A DNA stretch of 64,000 bases, taken from NCBI GenBank assembly GCA_964016885.1, contig OZ024741.1, positions 5,208,001-5,272,000 on the forward strand, read 5' to 3'. The notes beneath the pieces are model-generated. The model saw only the letters and a list, made by a program, of their open reading frames with translations. It had not been told where the DNA came from and made no database searches. Below are positions 36,553 to 52,100 of this stretch, in pieces. Numbering within the stretch: position 1 is the stretch's first letter; each line of letters opens with the position of its first letter. The DNA is from Eledone cirrhosa (lineage: Eukaryota). Position numbers and translations under genes: made by a program.

Positions 36553-36733
36553 ATTGGCAGTATCGGTAGAGGGTCAGACGCCATGCTTTCCAGCATAGTT
36601 ACGTCCCTTTATGGTCTGAGTTCAAATCCTGCCGAGGTTGACTTTGCCTTTCATCCTTACGGGGTCGATAAAATAAAGTACCAGTAATGCACTGGGTAAT
36701 TGCTGGCCTTGTGCCTAAAGTAGAAACAATTAT
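36553..36733 (+). mobile_element. tRNA-derived SINE (twin of the 25995-26178 copy)
   Basis: A-box TGGCAGTATCGG, B-box GAGTTCAAATCC, and the same body and tail as the satellite-embedded copy. Confidence 0.88.
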
Positions 36734-36757
36734 CATATTTCTAATGAAAGGCACTGT

Positions 36758-36837
<80 letters not shown>

Positions 36838-36917
36838 ACTACTACTACTACTACTACTGCTATCACTACTGCTGCTACTTCTGCTACTGCTCTGCTACTA
36901 CTACTACCACCACCACC

Positions 36918-36969
<52 letters not shown>

Positions 36970-36993
36970 GTACTACTACTGCTGCTGCTGCTG

Positions 36994-37024
<31 letters not shown>

Positions 37025-37995
37025 GCCCCACCACCACCACGCCCCGCCACCACCACCACCACGCCCCGCCACCACCACCACCACCACCACTGTCACCACC
37101 ACCACTGTCACCACCACCACTGTCACCACCACCACTGTCACCACCACTGTCACCACCACCACCACTGTCACCACCACCACCACCACCACCACTGTCACCA
37201 CCACCACCACCACTGTCATCACCACCACCACCACCACTGTCCCCACCACCACCACCACTGTCACCACCACTACCACCGCCGCCACCGCCGCCACCACCAC
37301 CACTACCACTACCACCACCACCACACCACCACCACCACCATACCACCACTACCACCACCACCACCACAACACCATACCACCACCACCACCACCACAACCA
37401 CTGTCACCACCACCACCACCACCACCACCACCACCACCACCACCACCACCACTGTCACCACCACCACCACCACCACTACCACCACCACCACCACACCACC
37501 ACCACACCACCACCACCACCACTGTCCCCACCACCACCACCACCACCACCACTACCACCACCACCACCACCACCACACCACCACCACCACTGTCACCACC
37601 ACCACACCACCACCACCACCACACCACCACCACCACCACACCACCACTGTCCCCACCACCACCACCACTACCACCACCACCACCACACCACCACCACCAC
37701 CACACCACCACCACCACCACTGTCACCACCACCACACCACCACACCACCACACCACCACCACCACCACCACACCACCACTATCCCCACCACCACCACCAC
37801 TACCACCACACCACCACCACCACCACACCACCACCACCACCACACCACCACTGTCCCCACCACCACCACCACCACCATCACCACCACCACCACCACCACC
37901 ACCACCACACCACCACCACCACCACCACCACCACACCACCACCACCACCACTGTCACCACCACCACACCACCACCACCACCACCACACCACCTAC
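36758..37995. repeat. ~1.2-kb compound trinucleotide repeat (CTA)n/(CTG)n/(CCA)n
   Basis: Directly visible. The CCA tract is punctuated by ccactgtc and ccacacc variants. It produces the spurious poly-T/P/H/V/W ORFs. Confidence 0.97.
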
Positions 37996-38149
37996 CTGTT
38001 TATCAAGTAGTAACCACCAGTATGTTGTTTATAGTCAACTTCAATACAGTAGCAGAACTGCTGTCTCTTCTGTACTAAACAAACTAGTTCAGTGTGCCAA
38101 CTAGTTCACAGTGGATCATTTTATATCTATGTAGATCTGTATGTCTGCT

Positions 38150-38262
<113 letters not shown>

Positions 38263-38553
38263 AAATGAAAAGTATAGAAATTGTTGTAGCGAGAAGCTAA
38301 CAGTATTCCATAACATATATGCGACTATAGAGTCAAAATGGGAAAATAGTTAACGTAAGATATGGGAAAAATAATTCAGACTCAATTCAAAAGGAATCAG
38401 GATATAGATTTATCCAACAGAATTTAGAGAAATCCAGGGAAAAATCAATAGAGCCTTAACTCATGATAAAACAAAGGCTAAAGTACTCAACCTTCAATTT
38501 GGGACAACTTCAAATGCTCTGTATAGTCTTGAAAAGACTATACTATATATAAT

Positions 38554-40127
38554 ATCATCATCATCATCATCATCACCGTTTTACGTCCGTTCTTCCACGC
38601 TAGCATGGGTTAGACGGGTTGTCCTGTTGTGGGCAGTGTCTGGTCGGCTGACCATGCCTTGCTCATACAGGAACTGATTTGGCTTGATTTCTACAGCTGG
38701 ATGCCCTTCCTAACACCAACCTCATTTACAGTGAGTGCTGGGTGCTTTTTCGTGGCGCCTACACGTCCACTTTACAGTGTGGGCTGGGTGCTTTTTTGCC
38801 GTGGCACCTCCACGACCACTTTGCAGTGGGAGAGTGTGGGGGCATATTGTCTATATGCTTCAGCTTGTACCCATGGGAGGTCGGGTACTCTGTATTACTG
38901 CGTGACGCCAGAAGTCACGGTCGTGTGTCATTGTCTTTGAGAGGTGTAATTGGGTAAGGTCGGCTTTTATCACCTCATCCCAGGTCATCTTGGGTCTCCC
39001 CACTCCGCGGTTTCCATCAACTTCTAGTGCTCTGCACCTTTTTATGCAGCTGTCATCCTTCATATCATCACATGTCCATACCAGCGCAACCGCCTCTCCT
39101 GCACACAGCATTTGATTCCTCTTATGCTCAGTCTCTCTCTCAATTCATTTATGCTTTGTCGTTCACGTATATTACTGTTACACATCCATCGGAGCATGCA
39201 GGCTTCGTTTCTCTCTAATCTACGTAAATCTTCCACCTTCAGCGCCCAGGTCTTACTACCATGTAACATTGCTGTTCGGATACACACATCATACAGTCTG
39301 CCTTTCATTCTGAGGGAGAAGCCTTTTGCAGCTAGCAGTGGTAGTAGTTCCCTAAACTTCTTCCATCCCGTTCTTACCCTAGTTATTGTACTTTCTGAAC
39401 ACCCACCTCCGCTGCTAATTCGGTCACCTAGGTAGCAGAAGCTGTCTACTGTTTCTACAGAGCCCTCCCAGAGATTGGTGGTACTTGTTTCCTGTGGCTG
39501 TTTGCTGCTTGCTGTCTCATCACAGCTGCTGCATGTGAAGCCTACATTCTTAATTAAGCTTCCTGAGATCCCGCTACATCTCTTGTGTACCCATTGTTTG
39601 CATTTGGGGCAGAGAATGGAGTTCCTACCTACACATTTCCTACATACTGAGCAAGGCCATTTCCCTGAGGGGATCTGGGTTCTGTTTTCTCGTCTACTTA
39701 CAAGGACCTTAGTCTTTGTCAGGTTGACTTTGAGCCCCATTCTTTCTAGTCTCTGCTTCCAAGTTTGGAATTTCTTCTCTAGTAGTTCTACCATTGATTC
39801 AGCTATAAGTGCGAGGTCATCAGCATACAGGAGTTCCCATGGGCATCCGGTAAACTCCTCCGTTATTGCCTGCAGGACTATGATGAACAGGAGAGGGCTA
39901 AGAACAGAACCCTGGTGGACACCAACCTGTACGCTAAATTCCTCGCTATACTCATTGCTAATCCTAACTTTGCTGACTGCTCCCCTATACATGGCTTGTA
40001 CCGCTTTCACAAGCCATTCATCTACTAGTTTTCTAAGAGCCCACCAGATTACAGCACGTGGAACTCTGTCAAAGGCTTTCTCAAGGTCGACAAATGCCAA
40101 GTAGAGTGGCTTACTTTTAGCTAGGTA
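38554..40127 (-). mobile_element. 5'-truncated RTE-clade non-LTR retrotransposon with 3' UTR and (TGA)n tail
   Basis: RT ORF 39060-40100 plus a frameshifted C-terminus (38860-39111), a 3' UTR with ~47-bp subrepeats, and (ATC)n at 38554-38575. The 5' end is lost at a (TA)n tract near 40127. Confidence 0.93.
38860..40100 (-). pseudogene. RTE reverse transcriptase (partial, frameshifted) with internal PHD-type Zn finger
   Basis: Motifs FVDLEKAFDRV, GVHQGSVLSPLLF, LLYADDLAL, GLKVNLTKTKV, VDSFCYLG, RRLRWYGHV and GRPKMTW. Cys/His cluster CSVC-x10-CPKC-x4-HKRC-x14-CSSC. Confidence 0.9.
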
Positions 40128-40201
40128 TATATATATATGTTTCTCTCAAGCTATATTCCAGGTGCCAACAGACAGATTCACACACACACACATATATATA
40201 T

Positions 40202-42131
40202 ATAACTTTGATAACTTTGATAACTTTGATAGGTTTCGGCCAGTATTGGCCCAGGCCATGTCTAACTTAATAGCACCACCTGGCGAAGTCTTACAAATCA
40301 GTGTTTGGGCACCATGGCCCACTCGAGCAGAGAGTTATTGTTTACGGAGGCATATCCGGGTGTAGGAGGCTTATCCGGGATTTCTTGAAGGAATTTATCC
40401 AAAGACTTCTTGAACTTGATGGGGTCTGTCTCTGCTTTGATGTGTTTTGGTGTAATGTTAAAGAGTGCAGGGCCAATTGAGATGAGATAATTGTGCCGTA
40501 TTGTTGTTATGTGATGCGAGTGGGATTTTTGTCGTGGGCAGATAGCACGGGGCCCAAGCCTTGGGTGTACACTAAAGGTGATGCCAACATCATTTGGGCT
40601 AAGCTGATGGAATATTTTCCACATCATACAGATAATGTAGCGCTCACGGCGACGTTGGAGAGAATAAAGTTTGAGCTTTTCTAAAGGACCCCAATAGTCA
40701 AGGCCTGTCATGCCATCTATCTTTTTTGTAATTGACATTTGAGGTGCTTCAACTTTCATGATACTTTGTTTCGTGTGGGGTGACCACAGTGGACAACAGT
40801 ATTTAAGGTGGGGTTGGGCAAAAGTGGAGAAGAGAAGGACAACAGTGTGGATATCTCTCGATTGGAAAGTTCTGAGAATCCAGTAACACATTCTGCGGGC
40901 CATATCAACTTTGCTGTTTATATGAGTGGCCCAGCTTATATTGTTGTCCACAATTACTCCCAGGTCCCTGATGTTATTGGAAGCCACTAGAGTTTCACCC
41001 AAAGGAAGAGAGTATGGTAGTTTCAGGGCATCCTTTTTTCCAAAGTGGATTAGTTCAAATTTATCCTCATTCAACACCATATTATTCATCTCTGCCCATT
41101 GGATAACAGCCAGTAGGTCTGACTGAAGGCAAGTCCGGTCACCCGCCTCATTGATGACCCTTTGGAGCTTGGAATCATCTGCGAAGATTCTAATGTTACT
41201 GTGTTTGATGATGTCAGTAATGTCATTAATGTAGATGATGAAAAGAAGTGGGCCCAACACAGTGCCTTGTGGGACGCCACTGCTGAATTTGGCAGGGCTT
41301 GATTTTACTCCTTCGACTACAACATGCTGGGTTCTGCCTGTCAGGAAACATTTGATCCACTGTAGTAACCTTCCAGAGACACCAACATTGGATAGTTTGT
41401 TCAGTAGAATCTTATGATCAACCCTGTCGAAGGCCTTGCTGAAATCAAAGTAGATGACATCAGTGTTGGAGCCCTCTCCCAAGGCTCTCAAAACATCGTC
41501 AAAGTGATGCAGGAGCTGCGTTAGGCAGTCCCTTCCATTACGGAATCCATGTTGGTTGGAGTTCAGCAGGCCGTTGCTTTCAAGAAAGTGGGTTATTCGT
41601 GATCTCACCACCCTCTCAAATACCGTGATAATATGAGAGGTGAGTGAGATCGGACGGTAGTTCACTGCAAGGGACTTATTTCCCTTTTTGAAGACTGGGA
41701 CAACAGACTGGGACAGAAAGTTTTCAGAAATATAGCCAGTGTCCAGTGAGTTCCTCCACAGATTAGCAAGAGGAGTTGCAAGTTGGTGTCGACACACCTT
41801 CAGGACACAAGCAGGGAACCTGTCGGGGCCTACTGCTGAATTGTGTTTAATTTCGTTTATTGCCGCTAAGACATCAGGGGCGCCAAACGTTATGTCTGAT
41901 ATAGTGTGTTGGGGGTTAACATCACTGATACGGCCCAGATCGGCCATATCAGGGTTGCTGAAAACAGAGCAGTATCGTTTCTGCAGTATCTCGCCCATGA
42001 TTGTGGCATTGTCCTGGAGTGTGCCATTTTCATCAACTAGGGGCCAACAGTGGAGACGGTGACCTTGTGTTTTTTAACGAATGAGAAGAACACTTTGGGG
42101 TTGAGTTGGATTTTCTCAATGGCCACCTCTC
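40202..42131 (-). mobile_element. 5'-truncated CR1/L2-group LINE
   Basis: RT ORF below, upstream frameshifted piece AIEKIQLNPKVFFSFVK, short 3' UTR ending in a 9-bp tandem tail (ataactttg x3 on + strand, 40202-40231). Bounded by (TA)n/(CA)n on both sides. Confidence 0.9.
40298..41998 (-). CDS. Reverse transcriptase ORF2 (RT + C-terminal region, endonuclease missing) of a CR1/L2-type LINE, 566 aa open frame
   Basis: Motifs SAVGPD, VVPVFKKG, NYRPISLTS, QHGFR, DFSKAFDRVDH, GVPQGTVLGPLLF, FADD, IRDLGV and LYSLQRRRER. Confidence 0.9.
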   Translation of the reverse strand: MGEILQKRYCSVFSNPDMADLGRISDVNPQHTISDITFGAPDVLAAINEIKHNSAVGPDRFPACVLKVCRHQLATPLANLWRNSLDTGYISENFLSQSVVPVFKKGNKSLAVNYRPISLTSHIITVFERVVRSRITHFLESNGLLNSNQHGFRNGRDCLTQLLHHFDDVLRALGEGSNTDVIYFDFSKAFDRVDHKILLNKLSNVGVSGRLLQWIKCFLTGRTQHVVVEGVKSSPAKFSSGVPQGTVLGPLLFIIYINDITDIIKHSNIRIFADDSKLQRVINEAGDRTCLQSDLLAVIQWAEMNNMVLNEDKFELIHFGKKDALKLPYSLPLGETLVASNNIRDLGVIVDNNISWATHINSKVDMARRMCYWILRTFQSRDIHTVVLLFSTFAQPHLKYCCPLWSPHTKQSIMKVEAPQMSITKKIDGMTGLDYWGPLEKLKLYSLQRRRERYIICMMWKIFHQLSPNDVGITFSVHPRLGPRAICPRQKSHSHHITTIRHNYLISIGPALFNITPKHIKAETDPIKFKKSLDKFLQEIPDKPPTPGYASVNNNSLLEWAMVPKH

Positions 42132-42235
42132 TTATATATATATACACATATATATATATATAACAAAGGAATTGTGGTAAGGAACCAGATGGACCAGAGT
42201 ACTCAATACTTAGGGTAGTAGAGTGGGAAATACGA

Positions 42236-42347
42236 AAAAGTATGACCCCGTCGGCAGAGCTCAAGCCGTTTCGACGGCTATTTCTGGACTAAATTAGAAT
42301 TTTTAGCCTGGTGAATAAATAGCCGAACTTGTCAATGGGGTACTTCC
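42236..42347 (-). ncRNA. Inverted copy of the U3-A8 hammerhead, probably inactivated
   Basis: Same fold on the minus strand, but the cleavage triplet reads GAC instead of GTC and there is a mismatch in stem I next to the core. Confidence 0.55.
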
Positions 42348-43160
42348 TTATATGGGAAGATTGTAGTTGTCAAGAGGATTGGTTAACATTTGTTGTAAAC
42401 GCAAATAAGTCTATCATGGCATTTGGTGGGAGGTAGGGGTGGCTGAACTTGCCTGTAGAACAATAGGGGAGTGAGTGGAGCGGTCAAGCGTTGAAAGTGA
42501 TATGTATACAGCAGTTTCTAAGGATAGTGTATAAAGTGGGGGAGGGAGGTTATAGAATAGGTAAATCGAATGAGAGTAAGAGACAATAAAAGATAATAGA
42601 AAAAAATAATAGAAAAAATGATACCCCCCACTTGCCGAATAAGTTAGGGGAAACGCCAGCTTACTTAGGTAGATGTATCTCTTTTCTTTTCTTTTCCTCT
42701 TTGTCTCATCCTATCACTTCCTTCCACCCCCTATTTTCTTCCTCGTCTGCTTTTCCCCTTTCGCCTACCCCGATGCAGCCCATCGGGCCTCTGTAGCATC
42801 AGTTTTTTCTAATTTCAACTTATTAACCTGTTATTGTAAGATAGCATCGTGATTTTTTTTTTAATTCATTTCTCACTATATATATTTTTTTTTTTCTATT
42901 ATTTTTTTCTATTATCTTTTATTGTCTCTTACTCTAATTCGATTTACCTATTCTATAACCTCCCACCCCCACTTTATACACTATCCTTAGAAACTGCTGT
43001 ATACATATCACTTTCAACGCTTGACCGCTCCACTCACTCCCCTATTGTTCTACAGGCAAGTTCAGCCACCCCTACCTCCCACCAAATGCCATGATAGACT
43101 TATTTGTGTTTACAACAAATTTTAACCAATCCTCTTGACAACTACAATCTTCCCATATAA

Positions 43161-43272
43161 GGAAGTACCTCCTTGACAAGTTCGGCTATTTATTCGCCAG
43201 GCTAAAAATTCTAATTTAGTCCAGAAATAGCCGTCGAAACGGCTTGAGCTCTGCCGTCGGGGTCATACTTTT
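43161..43272 (+). ncRNA. Type I hammerhead ribozyme, U3-A8 core variant
   Basis: Stem I ctcc/gggg plus aagta/tactt. Core TTGACAA-G (43173-43180). Stem II cggctattt/aaatagccg. C-GAAA (43235-43239). Stem III ACGGC/GCCGT with loop TTGAGCTCT. GTC cleavage triplet ending at 43258. Confidence 0.72.
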
Positions 43273-43315
43273 TCCTATATATATATATATATATAGGAAA
43301 AAGTATGACCCCGAC
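43256..43315. repeat. Perfect 60-bp palindrome: 20-bp arm + (TA)10 + 20-bp arm
   Basis: gtcggggtcatactttttcc-(ta)10-ggaaaaagtatgaccccgac. Confidence 0.95.
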
Positions 43316-44499
43316 CTCTCCATGGGATCGTTGACAGTGCTGACTTATGTGACTTGGTTGGCCTTTTTATCTTAGACATTACGTGTTAGATTCCCGGACT
43401 TCCACACGGGAATATACCGTGACGATGGACTGACTTTATCGAGCCATAAAAGTCGTCACGACCTCGACCGGTTTAAAAAAGACTTAGCTTCTACCTTCAA
43501 TGAGTTAGGCCTTAGGATAACAGTAGCTACCAACCTCTCTAGCGTAGATTTCTTATACATTAATTTAGACCTTCACACACACACCCATAGACCCTTCCAT
43601 AAGCTAAACGAGAAACTTAATTACATTCACAAGGACTCATGCCACCCTCCCACTGTTTTTAGAAACTTCGTTAAGAATATCAGTACTAGAATCTCAAACC
43701 TCTCCTCTAATAAGGCTATCTTTGACAGGGCGGCACCCTACTATAACACGGCATTGGCTAACAGCAGCTTCTCACAACCTATCACTTACTCTCCCACTAG
43801 CAACAACACCATTAAGAAAAATAAGCGCAACAATAGACAAATTATCTGCTTCTCTCCTTCCTTCTCACTCAACGTTAAAACCAATGTAGGAAAAAATGTC
43901 TAGCCCTCTTAGATAGACACTTTCCCATAGGTCATAAATACCGCTCCATCTTTAACCGACACAAAGTTAAACTAGGATACTCCTGCGCTAAGAACATGAA
44001 GGCCCACATCACCAGCAACCCTAGGTGCAACACCCCACCAGGGTGCTCTTGCCGTAAGCCTGAAGCTTGCCCCCTTCAACAGCAATGCAACACACCAGCT
44101 GTAATCTATGAAGCTGTGGTCACTTCCAACCGACCAAACGAACCACAGGAGGTCAAATCCTATGTGGGCATGGTGGAGGGCCGATACAAGGAGCGTTTCC
44201 TGAACCACCAGTCTACCTTCAGATACCCGGACAGACGTTCATCCACGAAACTCGCGAGCCACGTATGGTCCCTCAAGGACTCAAGTATAGGCTACTCCAT
44301 TCAATGGAAAGCCATCACTAAGTTCAAGCCATACGCAAGGGGAAATCCGACGTGTGGCTTATGTATTGATGAACGAATAACTATCCTAAAGAGATAACAC
44401 AATAGTGATTGCCTAAACACGAGAAGTGAATTTTTCACACGTTGTCCACACGTCACCAAACATCTATTGCATAACTACAAGGCTCCGGATTCTTTGTAA
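43316..44499 (+). pseudogene. Penelope-like element ORF remnant (RT + C-terminal GIY-YIG endonuclease), Naiad-like
   Basis: Pieces MGS..DSADLCDLVGLFIL, GIYRDDGL, RPFHK.NEKLNYIHKDSCHPP, then CSCRKPEACPLQQQC..VIYEAVV..SYVG..KERFLNH..STKLASHVW..CGLCIDE..LNTRSEFFTRCPH. Frameshifts and a TAA stop are present. Confidence 0.88.
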
Positions 44500-44662
44500 T
44501 TTTATTTTTAATTTAATTTTAATTTTATTTTCAACCTAAAAACTTTCCGGACTTTCGCAGTTATCTCCCTTACACCTCTCGCACGCAGTCTAGTATTGCC
44601 TGTGTGAAGTAACCGAGTTTCTGCGCATGCGCGTTCGTACGGTTGTCCTTACTGTTCCTATA

Positions 44663-44720
44663 ACCATACACATCCCGAGCTGAAGATCCGATAAGGTGAA
44701 ACAATTGTTCTCGGTATGGT
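44663..44720 (+). ncRNA. Minimal type I hammerhead ribozyme in the Penelope 3' pLTR
   Basis: accata..ccgag CTGAAGA tcc-gataa-ggt GAAA c-aatt-g TT ctcgg tatggt. Stem I ccgag/ctcgg plus accata/tatggt, canonical CUGANGA and GAAA, palindromic short stem III (ACAATTGT), predicted cut after GUU at 44709. Confidence 0.8.
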
Positions 44721-44745
44721 GAACTAACTGTTGTGTAACCACTTC

Positions 44746-45002
44746 TATATATATATATATATATGCAAGCCATAAACTCTGTTATATATATATATATACA
44801 CACAGATACATACATACATACACATACACACACACACATACATACATACATACATACATACATACATACATACATACATACATACATACATACATACATA
44901 CATACATACACACCTACATACATACATACATACATACATACATACATACATACATACATACATACATACATACATACATACATACATACATACATACATA
45001 CA
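44746..45002. repeat. (TA)n and (CATA)n microsatellites
   Basis: Directly visible. Further (CATA)n tracts at ~45596-45670, 46290-46356 and 47010-47295. Confidence 0.96.
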
Positions 45003-45595
45003 TGGTGGCTGCCAACTGGTTTTCGAGTACGGCCACTACTTTATATCCATGTAGGAGAACCCTTACCGATGCGCTGAACGAGTGTGACGTTTTAGTCCAG
45101 CCAGCGACTTGAAAACTCTGGTACAAACACTACACTTGTGACAATTATTGACACATAGTGCTGGGCCCATGGTACAATGTGACGACAAGTGCAGAGAGAT
45201 CTCCAGATATAAAGCAATGCCTATGCTGTGAAGCTTTTATAGTGAGCAAAGGCACTGCACAAAGCCAGTCCCACTCTCTTAACCAAGATGATATTTACCA
45301 AAAAGAAGAACAAGTCAACATCATTGGATACCATCAGGGTTGCAGGTGTTATATCAGAGTTTTCTTTCTCCTAGAATACTGCCTTGACAAAGGCTAAGGG
45401 GTCATCTCTCCCGGTGATTTTGGATGGCCATTGACTCTTAAGAGCTCCTTTGCCCTTTGACAGGTTTTGGTTTTAGTCCTGCAGGATGTCCAAAGTCACC
45501 CTCCTCACCAAGAAACCTTGGTGGGGTTGCCAGTTTAGTCGCCAACGACCCGACCATGAGACAGGTTGTACTGGGATACATGTTACCAGTAGCAC
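45002..45595 (-). mobile_element. ~600-bp non-coding interspersed repeat, copy 1 (probably non-autonomous RTE-derived, with (TATG)n tail)
   Basis: Shares three blocks with copy 2 (tggctgc..tcgagta.ggcca; ttctcctagaa..tgacaaaggc; ttttggatggcc..catgttaccagtagcac). The minus-strand end ccgtactcg..gcagccacc(atgt)n resembles RTE 3' ends as I recall them. Confidence 0.6.
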
Positions 45596-45670
45596 CATAC
45601 ATACATACATACATACATACATACATACATACATACATACATACATACATACATACATACATACATACAT

Positions 45671-46271
45671 GATGGCTGCTCCCTCGTTATCGAGTATGGC
45701 CATTGCACGATATATTTATTAATTCTATCGTGCAATGCCTGTGCGTGAAGATATTTTTTAAAGTGAGGAAAGACTGTGCACTGAGCCAATCCCACTCCCT
45801 GAGCGACAGTAGCTATAACCCGAAAAGAAGAAAAGATCAACATCATCGGTAACTACTGAGCCGCAGGTTTTATATCGGAGTTATCCCAGTTTCTTGAGTT
45901 GCCTTCTCCTAGAAGAATGTCCTGACAAAGGCAAGGGGTCCTTCACTCCCAATGGTTTAACCGCGCGATCGGGTGTCCAGCCCGACTATTTCTATGTCTC
46001 TGCGCATATACATACACATGCACCCATGTATATACACATATACATATATATGTATATGTGTATATACATATTTACACACTTTTGGATGGCCGTTGACTCT
46101 TATGAGTTCTTCCGCCCTTTGTCAGGTTTTGTTCTTTGTCCTGCAGGGTGGCCAAACTCGCCCTCCTCACCAAGGAAACTTGGTGGAGTTGCCGGTTTAG
46201 TCGCCGAAGACCTGATCATGCGACAGGTTGTACTGGGTTACATGTTACCAGTAGCACCCAAGAGTGACCTG
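45671..46271 (-). mobile_element. ~600-bp non-coding interspersed repeat, copy 2
   Basis: Same blocks as copy 1. The minus strand has ctaggagaaggcaactc..aaacc (RTE 5'UTR-like) and ends ccatactcgataacgagggagcagccatc(atgt)n. Contains an internal CA/TA tract at ~46005-46078. Confidence 0.6.
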
Positions 46272-46355
46272 ACATACATTTCATACACACATACATACAT
46301 ACATACATACATACATACATACATACATACATACATACATACATACATACATACA

Positions 46356-47010
46356 TAAAAGCTACAGCAATGTGGAAGACATCCATGTACATAATATGAA
46401 AGAGTACTGGTGGAATGTTTCAGTAAACACTCCAATAAAATGCAGGCATAACAGACCAGATATTATGATATGGGACAGGGAGAAGAAAGCATGCACAGTA
46501 GTGGAAATTTGTTGCCCAGCAGATGCCAATATATTATCAAAGATTAGCGAAAAGGAGAATATTTATGCAGAACTGATGAGAAATCTGCAGATACTCCACC
46601 CTGATTACACCTTCAGATTTATGCCTGTGATTATTGGGCACTGGGGTATGTTAGTAACTGCCTCAATACAAATCTTGAGAAGCTGGGCTTCACAGGAACA
46701 GCAAGAACACAACTAGTTAGGAAATTACAAGTACAATCCATTAATGTAACAGTAAAAATATGTAAAACATTCCAAAAATGTTGCATCTAATAACTGCATA
46801 TACACATGTACAGATACAAAGCATATACACATGCACACATACAACTCAAAACATCCACACATACAATAACATCCATATCTACACATTCATGCAGACATAC
46901 ATATCTACCTAGTAGATGTTGTGTAAATTCCAATGAGAGAGTCTTGTGGCTATGTTAGAAACCGACTCTCTCTATTGGTAAACATTTGTGAAATTATAAA
47001 ACCAGAAGAA
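46356..47010 (+). mobile_element. Short 5'-truncated R4/Dong-type (restriction-like endonuclease) LINE with complete 3' UTR
   Basis: Encodes HNRPDIMIWDREKKACTVVEICCP..ISEKENIY (PD-(D/E)xK RLE) and is a close paralog of 48496-48876. 3' hairpin ccaatgagagagtc..gactctctctattgg. Flanked by (CATA)n on both sides. Confidence 0.85.
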
Positions 47011-47048
47011 CATACATACATACATACACACATACACACATGCATACA

Positions 47049-47080
<32 letters not shown>

Positions 47081-47295
47081 AGCATACATACATACATATA
47101 TACATACATACATACATACATACATACATACATACACACATACATACATACATACACATACATAGATACATACAGATATACATACATACACACATACATA
47201 CATATATACACACATACATATATACACATACATACATACATACATACATACATACATACATACATACATACATACATACATACATACATACATAA

Positions 47296-48876
47296 ATAAA
47301 CCCCTTGTCATTTCTGCTCAAGAAATGTGAGGGATACATTATTGGCAAACAGGAGGACAGAAATACGAACCTAACCCATAACTTCTTTGTGGATGATCTG
47401 AAACTCTATGCCAAGAACATGGATGGGATGAAGAAAAATCTTGACCTGGTTACAACGTTCTCAAAGGATATAGGAATGGAGTTTGGCCAAGATAAATGCT
47501 CATACATGACTGTAAAGAGGGGAAAAACAACAACCTAATCTAGCAACATTGTCATCAATGGTCTAACTGTTTCACCGATATCTGATGAGGACAGCTACAG
47601 ATACCTGGAGATAGATGAGAACATATCCTATAATGGTATCTGTAATAAAGAACGCGGAGCCAGGGAATACTACACTCGATTAAGAAAGATATGGTCATCG
47701 GAACTCTCTGCCCAAAGCAAAACAGTGGCTCACAATGTGTTTGCTGTGCCTGTCCTAACACCAACGTTTGGAATACTCAATTGGACGATAGACGAAATCC
47801 GAGTGATTGATGTTAGAACTCAAAAAATACTAAACAACACCGGAAACTCCCACTTCAGCAGTGACATACACCGCCTATACTTGAATCGTAAGCAGGGAGG
47901 CAGAGGCCTAACATCAGTCCAGACAGCATTTGAATGTCGCATCATATTTCTCCGACAACATCGACGAACCTAAAAGCGTAGGAGCCTGTGTCTCGACCAC
48001 GTCTATCTGCATGAGAGTTGGGAAGGAACTCTTCGAGAGGTATTCCCTGTGTGATAATCAAAAGCTCACACCCAGGGAAGTTACTCAGCAGCATCGCAAT
48101 GAATTCATGGATGAAAAACTGCATACTTATCAGCAAAAAATCATGCATGGATATGTTGCCAGGAAGCTCCAGAGTGAGAGTAATATAGATAAGGAAAGTA
48201 GTCTATATTGGACCAACAACCGCTATATTAGCTCCCACTTTGAAGGATACGCTTTTGCAATCCAAGAACAGGAAATCAATATGAAATACCTGATTCACAA
48301 AAGAGATAGGGATGCAGGCAAAACACCTAGATGTGATAACAGACTCTGCAGAATTAACATCGAAGATGTCACCCATGTCATCAGCAGCTGTCCAAAGATG
48401 TCATCGCGGTACTATCTACCTATGAGGCATGATGTAGGGGCCAAAACACTGTACAATGCAATCCGTAAAAAAGAAAGCCCCGATAATAAACACATTAAAA
48501 GCTACAGCAATGTGGAAAACATACATATACATAATATGAAAGAGTACTGGTGTAATGTTCCAGTAAAAACCCCAATAAAATGCAGGCATAACAGACCAGA
48601 TATTATGATATGGGACAGGGAAAAGAAGCAAGCACAGTAGTGGAAATTAGCTGCCCAGCAGATGCCAATATAATATCAAAGATTAGTGAAAAGGAGAATA
48701 TTTATACAGAAATGACGAGAAATCTGCAGATACTCCACCCTGATTACACCTTCAGATTTATGCCTGTGATTATTGGGGCGCTGGGATATGTTAGTAACTG
48801 CCTCAATACAAATCTTGAGAAGCTGGGCTTCACAGGAACAGAAAGAACACAACTAGTTAGGAAATTACAAGTACAA
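47296..48876 (+). pseudogene. R4/Dong-type LINE ORF remnant: RT C-half, CCHC Zn knuckle, RLE
   Basis: NPLSFLL..HNFFVDDLKLYA..DIGMEFGQDKC, YRYLE, LYLNRKQGGRGL, MHG..IQEQEI, RLC..EDVTHVISSC..RHD, RPDIMIWD..VVEISCP..EK. Split over ORFs 47305, 47725, 47930 and 48610 by frameshifts and stops. Confidence 0.88.
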
Positions 48877-49047
48877 TGGAGGCACATGGCTTAGTGCTTA
48901 GAGCATTGGCCTTGCAATTGAAAGCTTGTGAGTTCAATTCTCAGACCGAGTGATGTGTTGTTTCCATGAGGAAGACACTTTATTTCACATTGCTCCAGAT
49001 TACTCAGCTGTAGAAATGAGATATTAGGGACTGGGGTCCATATCATT
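48877..49047 (+). mobile_element. Degraded tRNA-derived SINE (CORE-like body)
   Basis: A-box TGGCTTAGTG, B-box GAGTTCAATTC, then tgtttccatgaggaagacactttatttcac..ctcagctgtagaaatgag. It truncates the R4/Dong copy after gtacaa. Confidence 0.7.
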
Positions 49048-49113
49048 CCACTGAAAAGTGGTCGTGGAGGTGCCACGGCAAAAAAGCACCCAGCACTCAT
49101 TGTAAATGAGGTT
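49048..49113 (+). mobile_element. RTE 3' UTR fragment abutting satellite 2
   Basis: ccactgaaaagtggtcgtggaggtgccacggcaaaaaagcacccagcactcattgtaaatgaggtt matches the reverse complement of 38718-38830 (with one subrepeat skipped). Confidence 0.85.
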
Positions 49114-52100
49114 ATTACAGTGGTCCACTTGAGGAGGTTATTAGTGGTCCACTTGAGGAGGTTATTACAGTGGTCCACTTGAGGAGGTTATTACAGTGGT
49201 CCACTTGAGGTTATTACAGTGGTCCATTGAGGTGGCTATTACAGTGGTCCACTTGAGGAGGTTATTACAGTGGTCCACTTGAGGTTATTACAGTGGTCCA
49301 CTTGAGGTTATTACAGTGGTCCACTTGAGAAGGATATTACAGTGGTCCACTTGAGGAGGTTATTACAGTGGTCCACTTGAGGAGGTTATTACAGTGGTCC
49401 ACTTGAGGAGGTTATTACAGTGGTCCACTTGAGGTTATTACAGTGGTCCACTTCAGGAGGTTATTATAGTGGTCAACTTGAGGAGGTTATTACAGTGGTC
49501 CACTTGAGGAGGTTATTACAGTGGTCCACTTGAGGAGGTTATTACAGTGGTCCACTTGAGGTTATTACAGTGGTCCACTTGAGGAGGTTATTACAGTGGT
49601 CCACTTGAGGAGGCTATTACAGTGGTCCACTTGAGGAGGTTATTACAGTGGTCCACTTGAGGTTATTACAGTGGTCCACTTGAGGAGGTTATTACAGTGG
49701 TCCACTTGAGGAGACTATTACAGTGGTCCACTTGAGGAGGTTATTACAGTGGTCCACTTGAGGTTATTACAGTGGTCCACTTGAGGAGGTTATTACAGTG
49801 GTCCACTTGAGGTTATAACAGTGGGCCACTTGAGGTTATTACAGTGGTCCACTTGAGGATATTACAGTGGTCCACTTGAGGTTATTACAGTGGTCCACTT
49901 GAGGTTATTACAGTGGTCCACTTGAGGAGGTTATTACAGTGGTCCACTTGAGGAGGTTATTACAGTGGTCCACTTGGGGAGGTTATAACAGTGGTCCACT
50001 TGAGGAGGCTATTACAGTGGTCCACTTGAGGTTATTACAGTGGTCCACTTGAGGAGGTTATTACAGTGGTCCACTTGAGGAGGCTATTACAGTGGTCCAC
50101 TTGAGGAGGTTATTACAGTGGTCCACTTGAGGAGGTTATTACAGTGGTCCACTTGAGGAGGTTATTACAGTGGTCCACTTGAGGTTAATACAGTGGTCCA
50201 CTTGAGGAGGTTATTACAGTGGTCCACTTGAGGTAATTACAGTGGTCCATTTGAGGAGGTTATTACAGTGGTCCAATTGAGGAGGTTATTACAGTGGTCC
50301 ACTTGAGGTTATTACAGTGGTCCACTTGAGGAGGCTATTACAGTGGTCCACTTGAGGTTATTACAGTGGTCCACTTGAGGAGGTTATTACAGTGGTCCAC
50401 TTGAGGTTATTGCAGTGGTCCACTTCAGGAGGTTATTACAGTGGTCCACTTGAGGTTATTACAGTGGTCCACTTGAGGAGGCTATTACAGTGGTCCACTT
50501 GAGGTTATTACAGTGGTCCACTTGAGGAGGATATTACAGTGGTCCACTTGATGTTATTACACTGGTCCACTTGAGGAGGTTATTACAGTGGTCCACATGA
50601 GGTTATTACAGTGGTCCACTTGAGGAGGCTATTACAGTGGTCCACTTGAGAAGGTTATTACAGTGGTCCACTTGAGGTGATTACAGTGGTCCACTTGAGG
50701 AGGTTATTACAGTGGACCACTTGAGGGGTTATTACAGTGGTCCACTTGAGAAGGTTATTACAGTGGTCAACTTGAGGTTATTACAGTGGTCCACTTGAAG
50801 AGGCTATTACAGTGGTCCACTTGAGGTGGTTATTACAGTGGTCCACTTGAGGTTATTACAGTGGTACACTTGAGGAGGCTATTACGGAGCTCCACTTGAG
50901 ATTATTACAGTTGTCCACTTAAGGAGGTTATTACAGTGGTCCACTTAAGGAGGTTATTACAGTGGTCCACTTGAGGAGGTTATTACAGTGGTCCACTTGA
51001 GGAGGCTATTACAGTGGTCCACTTGAGGAGGTTATTACAGTGGTCCACTTGAGGTTATTACAGTGGTCCAATTGAGGAGGTTATTGCAGTGGTCCACTTG
51101 AGGAGGCTATTACAGTGGTCCACTTGAGGTTATTACAGTGGTCCACTTGAGGAGGTTATTACAGTGGCCACGTGAGGAGGCTATTACAGTGGTCCACTTG
51201 AGGTGGCTATTACAGTGGTCCACTTGACGAGGCTATTACAGTGGTCCACTTGACGAGGTTATTACAGTGGTCCACTTGAGGAGGCTATTACAGTAGTCCA
51301 CTTGAGGTTATTACAGTGGTCCACTTGACGAGGCTATTACAGTAATCCACTTGACGAGGCTATTACAGTGGTCCACTTGAGGAGGCTATTACAGTGGTCC
51401 ACTTGATTTTATTACACTGGTCCACTTGAGGAGGTTATTACAGTGGTCCACTTGACGAGGCTATTACAGTGGTCCACTAGACGAGGTTATTACAGTGGTC
51501 CACTTGAGGAACTATTACAGTGGTCCACTTGATGTTATTACACTGGTCCACTTGAGGAGGTTATTACAGTGGTCCACTTGAGGAGGCTGTTACAGTGGTC
51601 CACTTGAGAAGGTTATTACAGTGGTCCACTTGAGGTTATTACAATGGTCCACTTGAGGAGGTTATTACAGTGGTCCACTTGAGGTTATAACAGTGGGCCA
51701 CTTGAGGTTATTACAGTGGTCCACTTGAGGATATTACAGTGGTCCACTTGAGGTTATTACAGTGGTCCACTTGAGGTTATTACAGTGGTCCACTTGAGGA
51801 GGTTATTACAGTGGTCCACTTGGGGAGGTTATAACAGTTGTCCACTTGAGGAGGCTATTACAGTGGTCCACTTGAGGTTATTACAGTGGTCCACTTGAGG
51901 AGGTTATTACAGTGGTCCACTTGAGGAGGCTATTACAGTGGTCCACTTGAGGTTATTACAGTGGTCCACTTGCGGAGGTTATTACAGTGGTCCACTTGCG
52001 GAGGCTATTACAGTGGTCCACTAGACGAGGTTATTACAGTGGTCCACTTGAGGAACTATTACAGTGGTCCACTTGATGTTATTACACTGGTCCACTTGAG

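Follow-up and report, generated by a model that had tools for sequence, protein, structure and literature searches.

Genomic copy ends of a Penelope-like family in Eledone cirrhosa likely mark the cut site of its U3-A8 hammerhead ribozyme

Hammerhead ribozymes with a U3-A8 core occur in nature (PMC3088659), and about 1,300 U3-A8 matches of Penelope hammerheads were counted in Schistosoma mansoni, according to the accessible text of the report in which circles were also proposed for hammerhead Penelope RNA (Cervera and de la Pena, 2014; PMC4209133). Penelope promoters sit in the pLTR, as far as the available excerpt states (PMC2377424). For the anole element, the accessible part of the original study describes two neighbouring internal sites that are used for initiation on both strands of the target, and reports that cleavage was dispensable in vitro and that RNA-seq ends were absent from the cut (Frangieh et al., 2024; PMC11167929). 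What hammerheads do in Penelope elements that carry an endonuclease was called unclear in the excerpted text of Craig et al. (2021; PMC8557442). Here, a hammerhead-bearing locus of Eledone cirrhosa is compared with these systems. We consider it probable that the locus is an insertion of an autonomous Penelope element, and that the U3-A8 hammerhead of this element cuts the element RNA in vivo at GUC, in a minority of the templates.

The window, i.e., the whole stretch analysed, comprises 64,000 nt of E. cirrhosa (OZ024741.1, 5,208,001-5,272,000, forward strand; genome size 3.0 Gb). Self-comparison of the window revealed two arms of 389 nt with 98% complementarity, at 42230-42618 and 42890-43278. 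Judging by its layout, the unit to which they belong is one 5'-truncated Penelope-like insertion, which consists of a pLTR arm and an inverted arm of pLTR plus tail. Both arms terminate in TA runs, and the left one is composed of an inverted 5' pLTR and a tail of about 80 nt. The (TA)n target run of the left end (42133-42162) is followed by the tail (42163-42232, minus strand), which runs beyond the end of the pLTR into ORF-proximal sequence and matches the full-length copy L031 beside its 5' pLTR; the tail measures about 78-80 nt in intact copies, and the window copy is without 10 nt of it. Based on alignment to L031, the left arm (42233-42618, minus strand) is an inverted, 5'-truncated pLTR copy of this family, which is referred to as family A throughout this paper. 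The right arm (42619-43275, plus strand) corresponds by blastn to the 3' UTR and pLTR of L031, starts 9 nt past the stop codon of its ORF, and, compared with L031, shows a gap of some 110 nt close to 42803. The first-pass annotation had placed the unit at 42234-43315; these bounds are revised here, as the unit reaches left to 42163 with its tail and the right arm begins at 42619, not at 42890. A (TA)10 target run (43276-43295) closes the right end and is followed by a 20-nt inverted stub of the family A 3' end (43296-43315, minus strand), recognized by sequence comparison. A truncated and inverted copy with a tail agrees with the descriptions in the accessible parts of PMC8557442 and PMC3846280.

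The stub meets a second Penelope copy head-to-head through a CGAC microhomology (-3 to 0) that spans the cut site, and it may have arisen either by fold-back or from a second template. At 17 sites, 15 of which were examined (window 43256-43315; L070-L084), a TA run is enclosed by a tail-to-tail palindrome, and several stubs share the variant of their own neighbour, which hints at fold-back copying. The second copy belongs to family B (43313-44745, plus strand); it is 5'-truncated, has its own pLTR, and carries an ORF (43313-44497) with RT/EN protein fragments 33-39% identical to those of family A. Its sequence contains a minimal hammerhead-like motif with C3-G8 (CTGAAGA...GAAAC AATT GTT; 44675-44714, plus strand), in which AATT is a palindrome, and family B yielded 1,059 first-look candidates. 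The earlier statement that the pLTR of the unit is unrelated in sequence to that of the adjacent Penelope ORF holds; the latter belongs to family B and carries a separate minimal hammerhead with C3-G8. Of 11 other family B copies, 4 (L250, L253, L254 and L257) have family A pieces within 1.5 kb, which fits shared TA targeting. Other repeats were noted in the surroundings: a LINE RT ORF (40298-42073, minus strand; RVT_1, E 1e-28) that abuts the left TA run of the unit, a second RT-like fragment (39060-40145, minus strand), a 59-nt inverted repeat pair of 93% identity separated by 10 kb (38771-38829 and 49048-49106), which flanks this part of the window on both sides and is probably another dispersed repeat, a 23/26-bp minisatellite (49117-50000), and a long triplet-repeat tract (36672-38104) that yields spurious ORFs.

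The hammerhead region of family A gave 1,114 first-look candidates in the 3.0-Gb genome, and the exact tail motifs matched 9,726 times for the window subfamily and 6,019 times for the sister subfamily, together more than 15,000 3' ends. In the full-length copies L031, L032 and L033, this pLTR is found on either side of an RT/GIY-YIG ORF of its own; L031 has two direct pLTR copies around an ORF region of about 3 kb, and the other two carry an inverted 5' copy. RT motifs are recognizable in the ORF fragments, as is a C-terminal endonuclease, which in L033 has RLRWR, SDKTG, CNCPDRSTC, CNLC and CKH. A single ORF with RT and C-terminal GIY-YIG lies between pLTRs, and it is broken in all copies seen. 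Searches of Pfam with six Penelope fragments and of PDB with the RT fragment returned no match; among the ESM Atlas neighbours, RVT_1 was found on 42% of one cluster and GIY-YIG on 23% of one cluster. Family A inserts in (TA)n, the 3' ends of its copies fall at either of two fixed positions (the end of the pLTR or that of the tail), and the copies display 5' truncation, an adjacent inverted pLTR and a tail at one end, as is typical of EN+ Penelope-like elements. The RWK (here reading RWR), DKT, CxCX5C linker and CxxC/CxH motifs and the (TA)n targets of the Hydra clade, as given in the available text of PMC8557442, were all found. By its motifs, the source of the unit is an autonomous Penelope-like family with its own RT/GIY-YIG ORF and Hydra-clade features. 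Of the former description of the unit as "pLTR or retrozyme-like", the first half stands and the second does not, since the pLTR flanks its own RT/GIY-YIG ORF; a non-coding unit mobilised in trans is likewise contradicted by the ORFs of L031-L033 and by the start of the right arm just past the ORF stop.

The right arm contains a type I hammerhead (43169-43262, plus strand) with the core U3-U4-G5-A6-C7-A8-A9 and a predicted cut after C43258. It consists of stem I (43169-72/43259-62), the core TTGACAA (43173-79), the G10.1-C11.1 pair (43180/43235), a stem II of 9 bp (43183-91/43225-33) within a 56-nt arm, GAA (43236-38), and stem III (43239-43/43253-57) with GAGCTC in its loop. All elements listed at first pass were thus recovered, as was TTGACAA in each of the two arms, and the architecture is that of type I (three stems, CUGANGA/GAAA/NUH, open at stem I) with a U3/A8 variant of the core. 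The left-arm hammerhead (42246-42339, minus strand; U3-A8 core at 42335-42329) is broken by U16.1A (42251) and by A at N2.1 (42336). Because GAC replaces GTC at the cut and A replaces C beside the core, this ribozyme is probably inactive. GTC (A15.1-U16.1, H17) is present at the cut site in 50 of 51 aligned genomic copies; the left arm of the window, which lies outside that alignment, departs from it.

Folding predictions differed among copies. The hammerhead of the window copy is not its minimum-energy fold and lies 4.9 kcal/mol above the ensemble, as compared with 2.3 kcal/mol in the unmutated sister L003; in the best fold of the window copy (z = -2.5 versus shuffled sequences), UUGAC of the core pairs with GUCGA. 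The hammerhead was the minimum-energy fold in the TTGATAA, CTGAGAA and TTGAAAA copies folded, and a constrained energy for the left arm was discarded, as non-canonical pairs had been forced. A comparison with the Rfam hammerhead models, which had been proposed as a check, lent no support: a scan of 38000-50000 returned no hammerhead family among 84 matches at E<=10, only chance miRNA hairpins. The long stem II insert and the core variant may account for this miss. It was also observed that GCCGTC is directly repeated (43230-35 and 43253-58), and that a recurrent deletion between the repeats removes GAAA and stem III.

Conservation was assessed in the whole genome. The core and stem II motif, searched with a fixed stem II flank, matched 2,744 times and its reversed control 0 times. 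A strict hammerhead pattern had given 2 matches and was replaced by one that yielded 81 copies, 51 of which were picked to span the core types and aligned. U4, G5, A6 and A9 are unchanged in 51/51 copies and N7 is free to vary (all four bases occur among the 2,744 core matches), 91% of the stem cells are paired, as compared with 32-55% in slid controls, and stem II has two-sided changes at three pairs between subfamilies. The fold is therefore conserved among genomic copies, and the hammerhead exceeds chance, because 2,744 matches stand against 0 in the control and stem II covaries between subfamilies. The 3-8 pair behaves differently. It is U-A in 24, C-G in 7, U·G in 7 and unpaired in 13 of the 51 copies, although these variants and the two-sided changes stem from a few subfamilies and not from independent events. 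Genome-wide, U3-A8 accounts for about 2,280 matches and C3·A8, mostly as CTGAGAA, for 462, among them L035-L054; a looser G8 pattern gave 93 matches (control 3), mostly U3·G8 among those read, and another G8 count (165) was inflated, as 10 of 20 regions checked were not hammerheads. C3-G8 and U3·G8 are both present in an older group whose stem II differs. The pair is thus not strictly compensatory, because it can be U-A, C·A, U·G or C-G; the former term "compensatory" fits only in part, since mismatched C3·A8 and U3·G8 subfamilies were amplified as well. The occurrence of U3-A8 in Penelope hammerheads had been published before (accessible text of PMC4209133). In a tree of 116 columns with midpoint rooting and bootstrap values that had not settled, G8 copies are basal and A8 copies form one supported group; since no outgroup was used, the order from C-G/U·G through U-A to C·A should be taken only as a lead.

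The 5' ends of the copies have a preferred position. Unbiased samples were taken as the first matches along contig C1 (92 arms of the sister subfamily and 31 of the window subfamily), in which 57/92 and 21/31 arms, respectively, start at -30 to -46 from the cut, and 12/92 and 2/31 reach the 5' half of the core (L317, with an end at -4, was excluded). In 42 TA-joined sites counted by hand among the matches listed (100 of 9,256), ends reach -40/-42 and then nearly stop, with 2/42 beyond. The simplest reading, and a likely one, is that the cluster marks where cDNAs run off an RNA whose 5' end lies close to the A in TTAGT/TCAGT; in the window this would be TTAGT at 43216-43220 (plus strand), inside the stem II loop, with A43218 at -41 from the cut, a start position taken from DNA copy ends alone. 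TTAGT/TCAGT at this presumed start may resemble an initiator. A splice acceptor or a protein or structure roadblock, with the 5' hammerhead complete on the RNA, is a possible but less favoured account of this one step: acceptor-like AG dinucleotides at -40 and -35 follow a CTAAT motif, the inner hairpin starts near -37 in the window subfamily, and the D. virilis pLTR intron ends at helix I (accessible text of PMC4209133). However, the joints have no upstream exon in common and continue either into TA runs or into the partner arm, the near-complete stop past -40/-42 does not fit, and the inner hairpin varies among subfamilies with the same boundary.

Where arms are paired, the resulting inversions measure about 240 bp and have centres that vary from copy to copy, and most family A copies among L219-L330 are such inverted mini-insertions without the 5' half of the ribozyme. 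Since the window copy is without an ORF and short inverted units exist in thousands, one might suppose that Penelope proteins acted in trans on a non-coding, retrozyme-like unit and copied it into an inverted repeat. We regard this as highly improbable: the pLTR flanks its own ORF, each inversion was made anew because arm lengths and central joints vary between copies, and no tandem array of complete hammerheads was found, unlike in the definition of retrozymes in the available text of bioRxiv 10.64898/2026.07.22.740005.

A second class of ends lies at the cut. In the TCTTAC-tail subfamily, whose core is TTGATAA in 6/6 linked copies, an AT-rich junction lies between +2 and -9 in 47 matches from 46 loci. 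Exactly at G1.1 (position 0) start 26 of the 46, with 4 or fewer at every other position (P = 2e-17 versus uniform, for 44 loci with two ambiguous ones dropped and a pattern that merges T/A positions with their neighbours); control positions -11 to -16 have 12 ends in total. Of the 26, 17 carry the tail and therefore derive from the pLTR/ORF junction. Two members of this set of 26, L163 and L193, are whole hammerheads with an AT-rich insert of 17-18 nt exactly between C17 and G1.1; a genome-wide search for such inserts gave 4 matches including these, and the same search at two neighbouring control positions gave 3 matches without a clean insert and 0 matches. In L279 and in L291, both arms begin at the cut and are separated by 1-2 extra bases, and among 114 near-cut inverted joints, 50 counted by hand comprised 13 with 1-3 extra bases (11 unambiguously cut-to-cut), 22 blunt CCCC|GGGG joints that are CG-ambiguous, 11 that fit CGACG microhomology, and 4 others. 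In the unbiased sister sample, 6/92 arms (4 loci) are at 0 as compared with 16 over the 29 positions -1 to -29, and cleaved RNA is therefore a minor template.

The signal varies among subfamilies. In the window subfamily, TA-junction ends counted by hand at 98 sites among the matches listed (100 of 125; 8 internal deletions dropped) include 13 at 0 (7 direct), as compared with 5-10 at each of the positions -11 to -15 with a slightly looser pattern, so that no clear excess is seen at the cut; 1/31 unbiased arms is at the cut, and 43 near-cut joints, about 5-6 of them clean, are several-fold fewer per copy than in the sister subfamily. This weak signal fits the predicted misfold of the window subfamily, which is a lead only from four subfamilies. 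The TTAAAC-tail group has 8-11 of 35 ends at 0, and a C3·A8-linked tail (8/12 copies linked) has 9 of 18. The latter is unexpected because strict 3-8 pairing would not predict cutting by a mismatched core, and a shifted register, in which G7 acts as G8, is a possible explanation.

It is likely, as far as can be judged from DNA, that the cut-site ends, the cut-to-cut joints and the inserts are a fossil record of hammerhead cleavage in vivo. Alternatively, the hammerhead could be vestigial and the ends at the cut produced by a reverse transcriptase that stalls at the hairpin of stem III or at the G-run, or by microhomology joining. The tolerance of the 3-8 pair for C·A and U·G, the predicted misfolding of the window copy and the weak excess in its subfamily are in keeping with that explanation; CG/CGACG microhomology covers up to 33 of the 50 near-cut joints counted, and the recurrent deletion of GAAA and stem III, found about 26 times among the matches listed (100 of 619) genome-wide, counts against a ribozyme reading. 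Nevertheless, it is unlikely. A stall at the hairpin base would be predicted at -1/-2, where 4 and 3 ends were seen against 26 at 0, G0 shares no microhomology with TA runs, joints with untemplated bases sit at 0/0, and the inserts lie exactly between C17 and G1.1.

Based on these observations, cleavage in vivo can be placed in the following scheme. The two ends of the nicked TA target would prime reverse transcription at the pLTR end and at the tail end of one RNA, and the two resulting cDNAs would be joined head-to-head. The usual RNA would begin near -41 inside stem II, so that most cDNAs run off there and give the mini-inversions of about 240 bp, and run-off on cleaved RNA would give copy ends at the cut. 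An inverted arm made by self-priming on an antisense template (Arkhipova, 2013), in place of two primings on sense RNA, was put forward for rotifer elements whose joints contain palindromes (accessible text of PMC3846280), and palindromic joints are common here. It appears improbable for family A, since the arms end at the pLTR end and the tail end, which correspond to two sense-RNA initiation sites (available part of PMC11167929), and unequal arms and untemplated bases are frequent at the joints. Under the two-priming scheme, long arms such as those of the window (to about -360 and -640) might come from read-through, from tandem or circular RNA, or from a jump through the -41 to +17 repeat. 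More speculatively, because the 5' copy on the RNA would retain no more than the substrate half, this half-ribozyme could be cut by the complete 3' copy as a double-hammerhead through the GAGCTC loop and lead to circularisation. The combined proposal that the start splits the 5' hammerhead, that the 3' copy cuts the 5' end and circles template full pLTRs, that truncated genomic copies register start and cleavage site alike, and that even C3·A8 cores cut in vivo, is tentative and in our view rather doubtful.

The U3-A8 variant and the inverted layout are already known; the copy-end evidence appears to be new. A full-text literature search retrieved no description of copies that end at the cut of a Penelope hammerhead, and none of amplified mismatched 3-8 cores. 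Ends, joints and inserts exact to the cut argue, at the level of DNA, for reverse transcription of cleaved RNA in the germ line. The U-A, C·A, U·G and C-G subfamilies, with their differing misfolding, offer a natural series for relating the rate of cleavage to the proportion of ends at the cut, and since end mapping requires an assembly only, it is applicable to any Penelope family.

Among the described systems, the pLTR hammerheads of S. mansoni Cercyon and other metazoans, as presented in the accessible text of PMC4209133, are similar to that of family A in type I pLTR location, U3-A8, G10.1-C11.1, long helix II, short helix I, palindromic loop 3, mostly truncated copies, and opposite-strand pairs 100-700 bp apart. 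The family A hammerhead differs from them in a stable stem III of 5 bp with a 9-nt loop, where theirs is minimal, in its 56-nt stem II arm without an extra base between 9 and 10.1, in the amplified C3·A8 and U3·G8 subfamilies, and in copy ends that mark the cut. Non-LTR retrozymes (available text of bioRxiv 10.64898/2026.07.22.740005) share the type I hammerhead, the relation to pLTRs and non-coding short copies, but family A is not tandem, is protein-coding and autonomous, and has 80/92 arms without the 5' core. The likeness to the Hydra clade, whose elements have a C-terminal endonuclease (EN+), would rest on motifs: in the excerpts of PMC8557442, that clade has in common with family A the RW-basic, DKT, CxCX5C linker, CxxC and CxH motifs, (TA)n targeting, a hammerhead and a length of about 3 kb, whereas family A has RWR instead of RWK, a tail of about 80 instead of 30-40 nt, and a very high copy number. 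Poseidon PAc of Anolis, according to the accessible part of PMC11167929, resembles family A in two adjacent initiation sites that define the tail, an AT-rich target, a hammerhead near the pLTR/ORF junction, and uncleaved RNA as the main template. Its ORF starts inside the hammerhead, whereas that of family A starts about 190 nt downstream, and in contrast to its RNA-seq ends, none of which was found at the cut, the genomic ends of family A pile up at this position.
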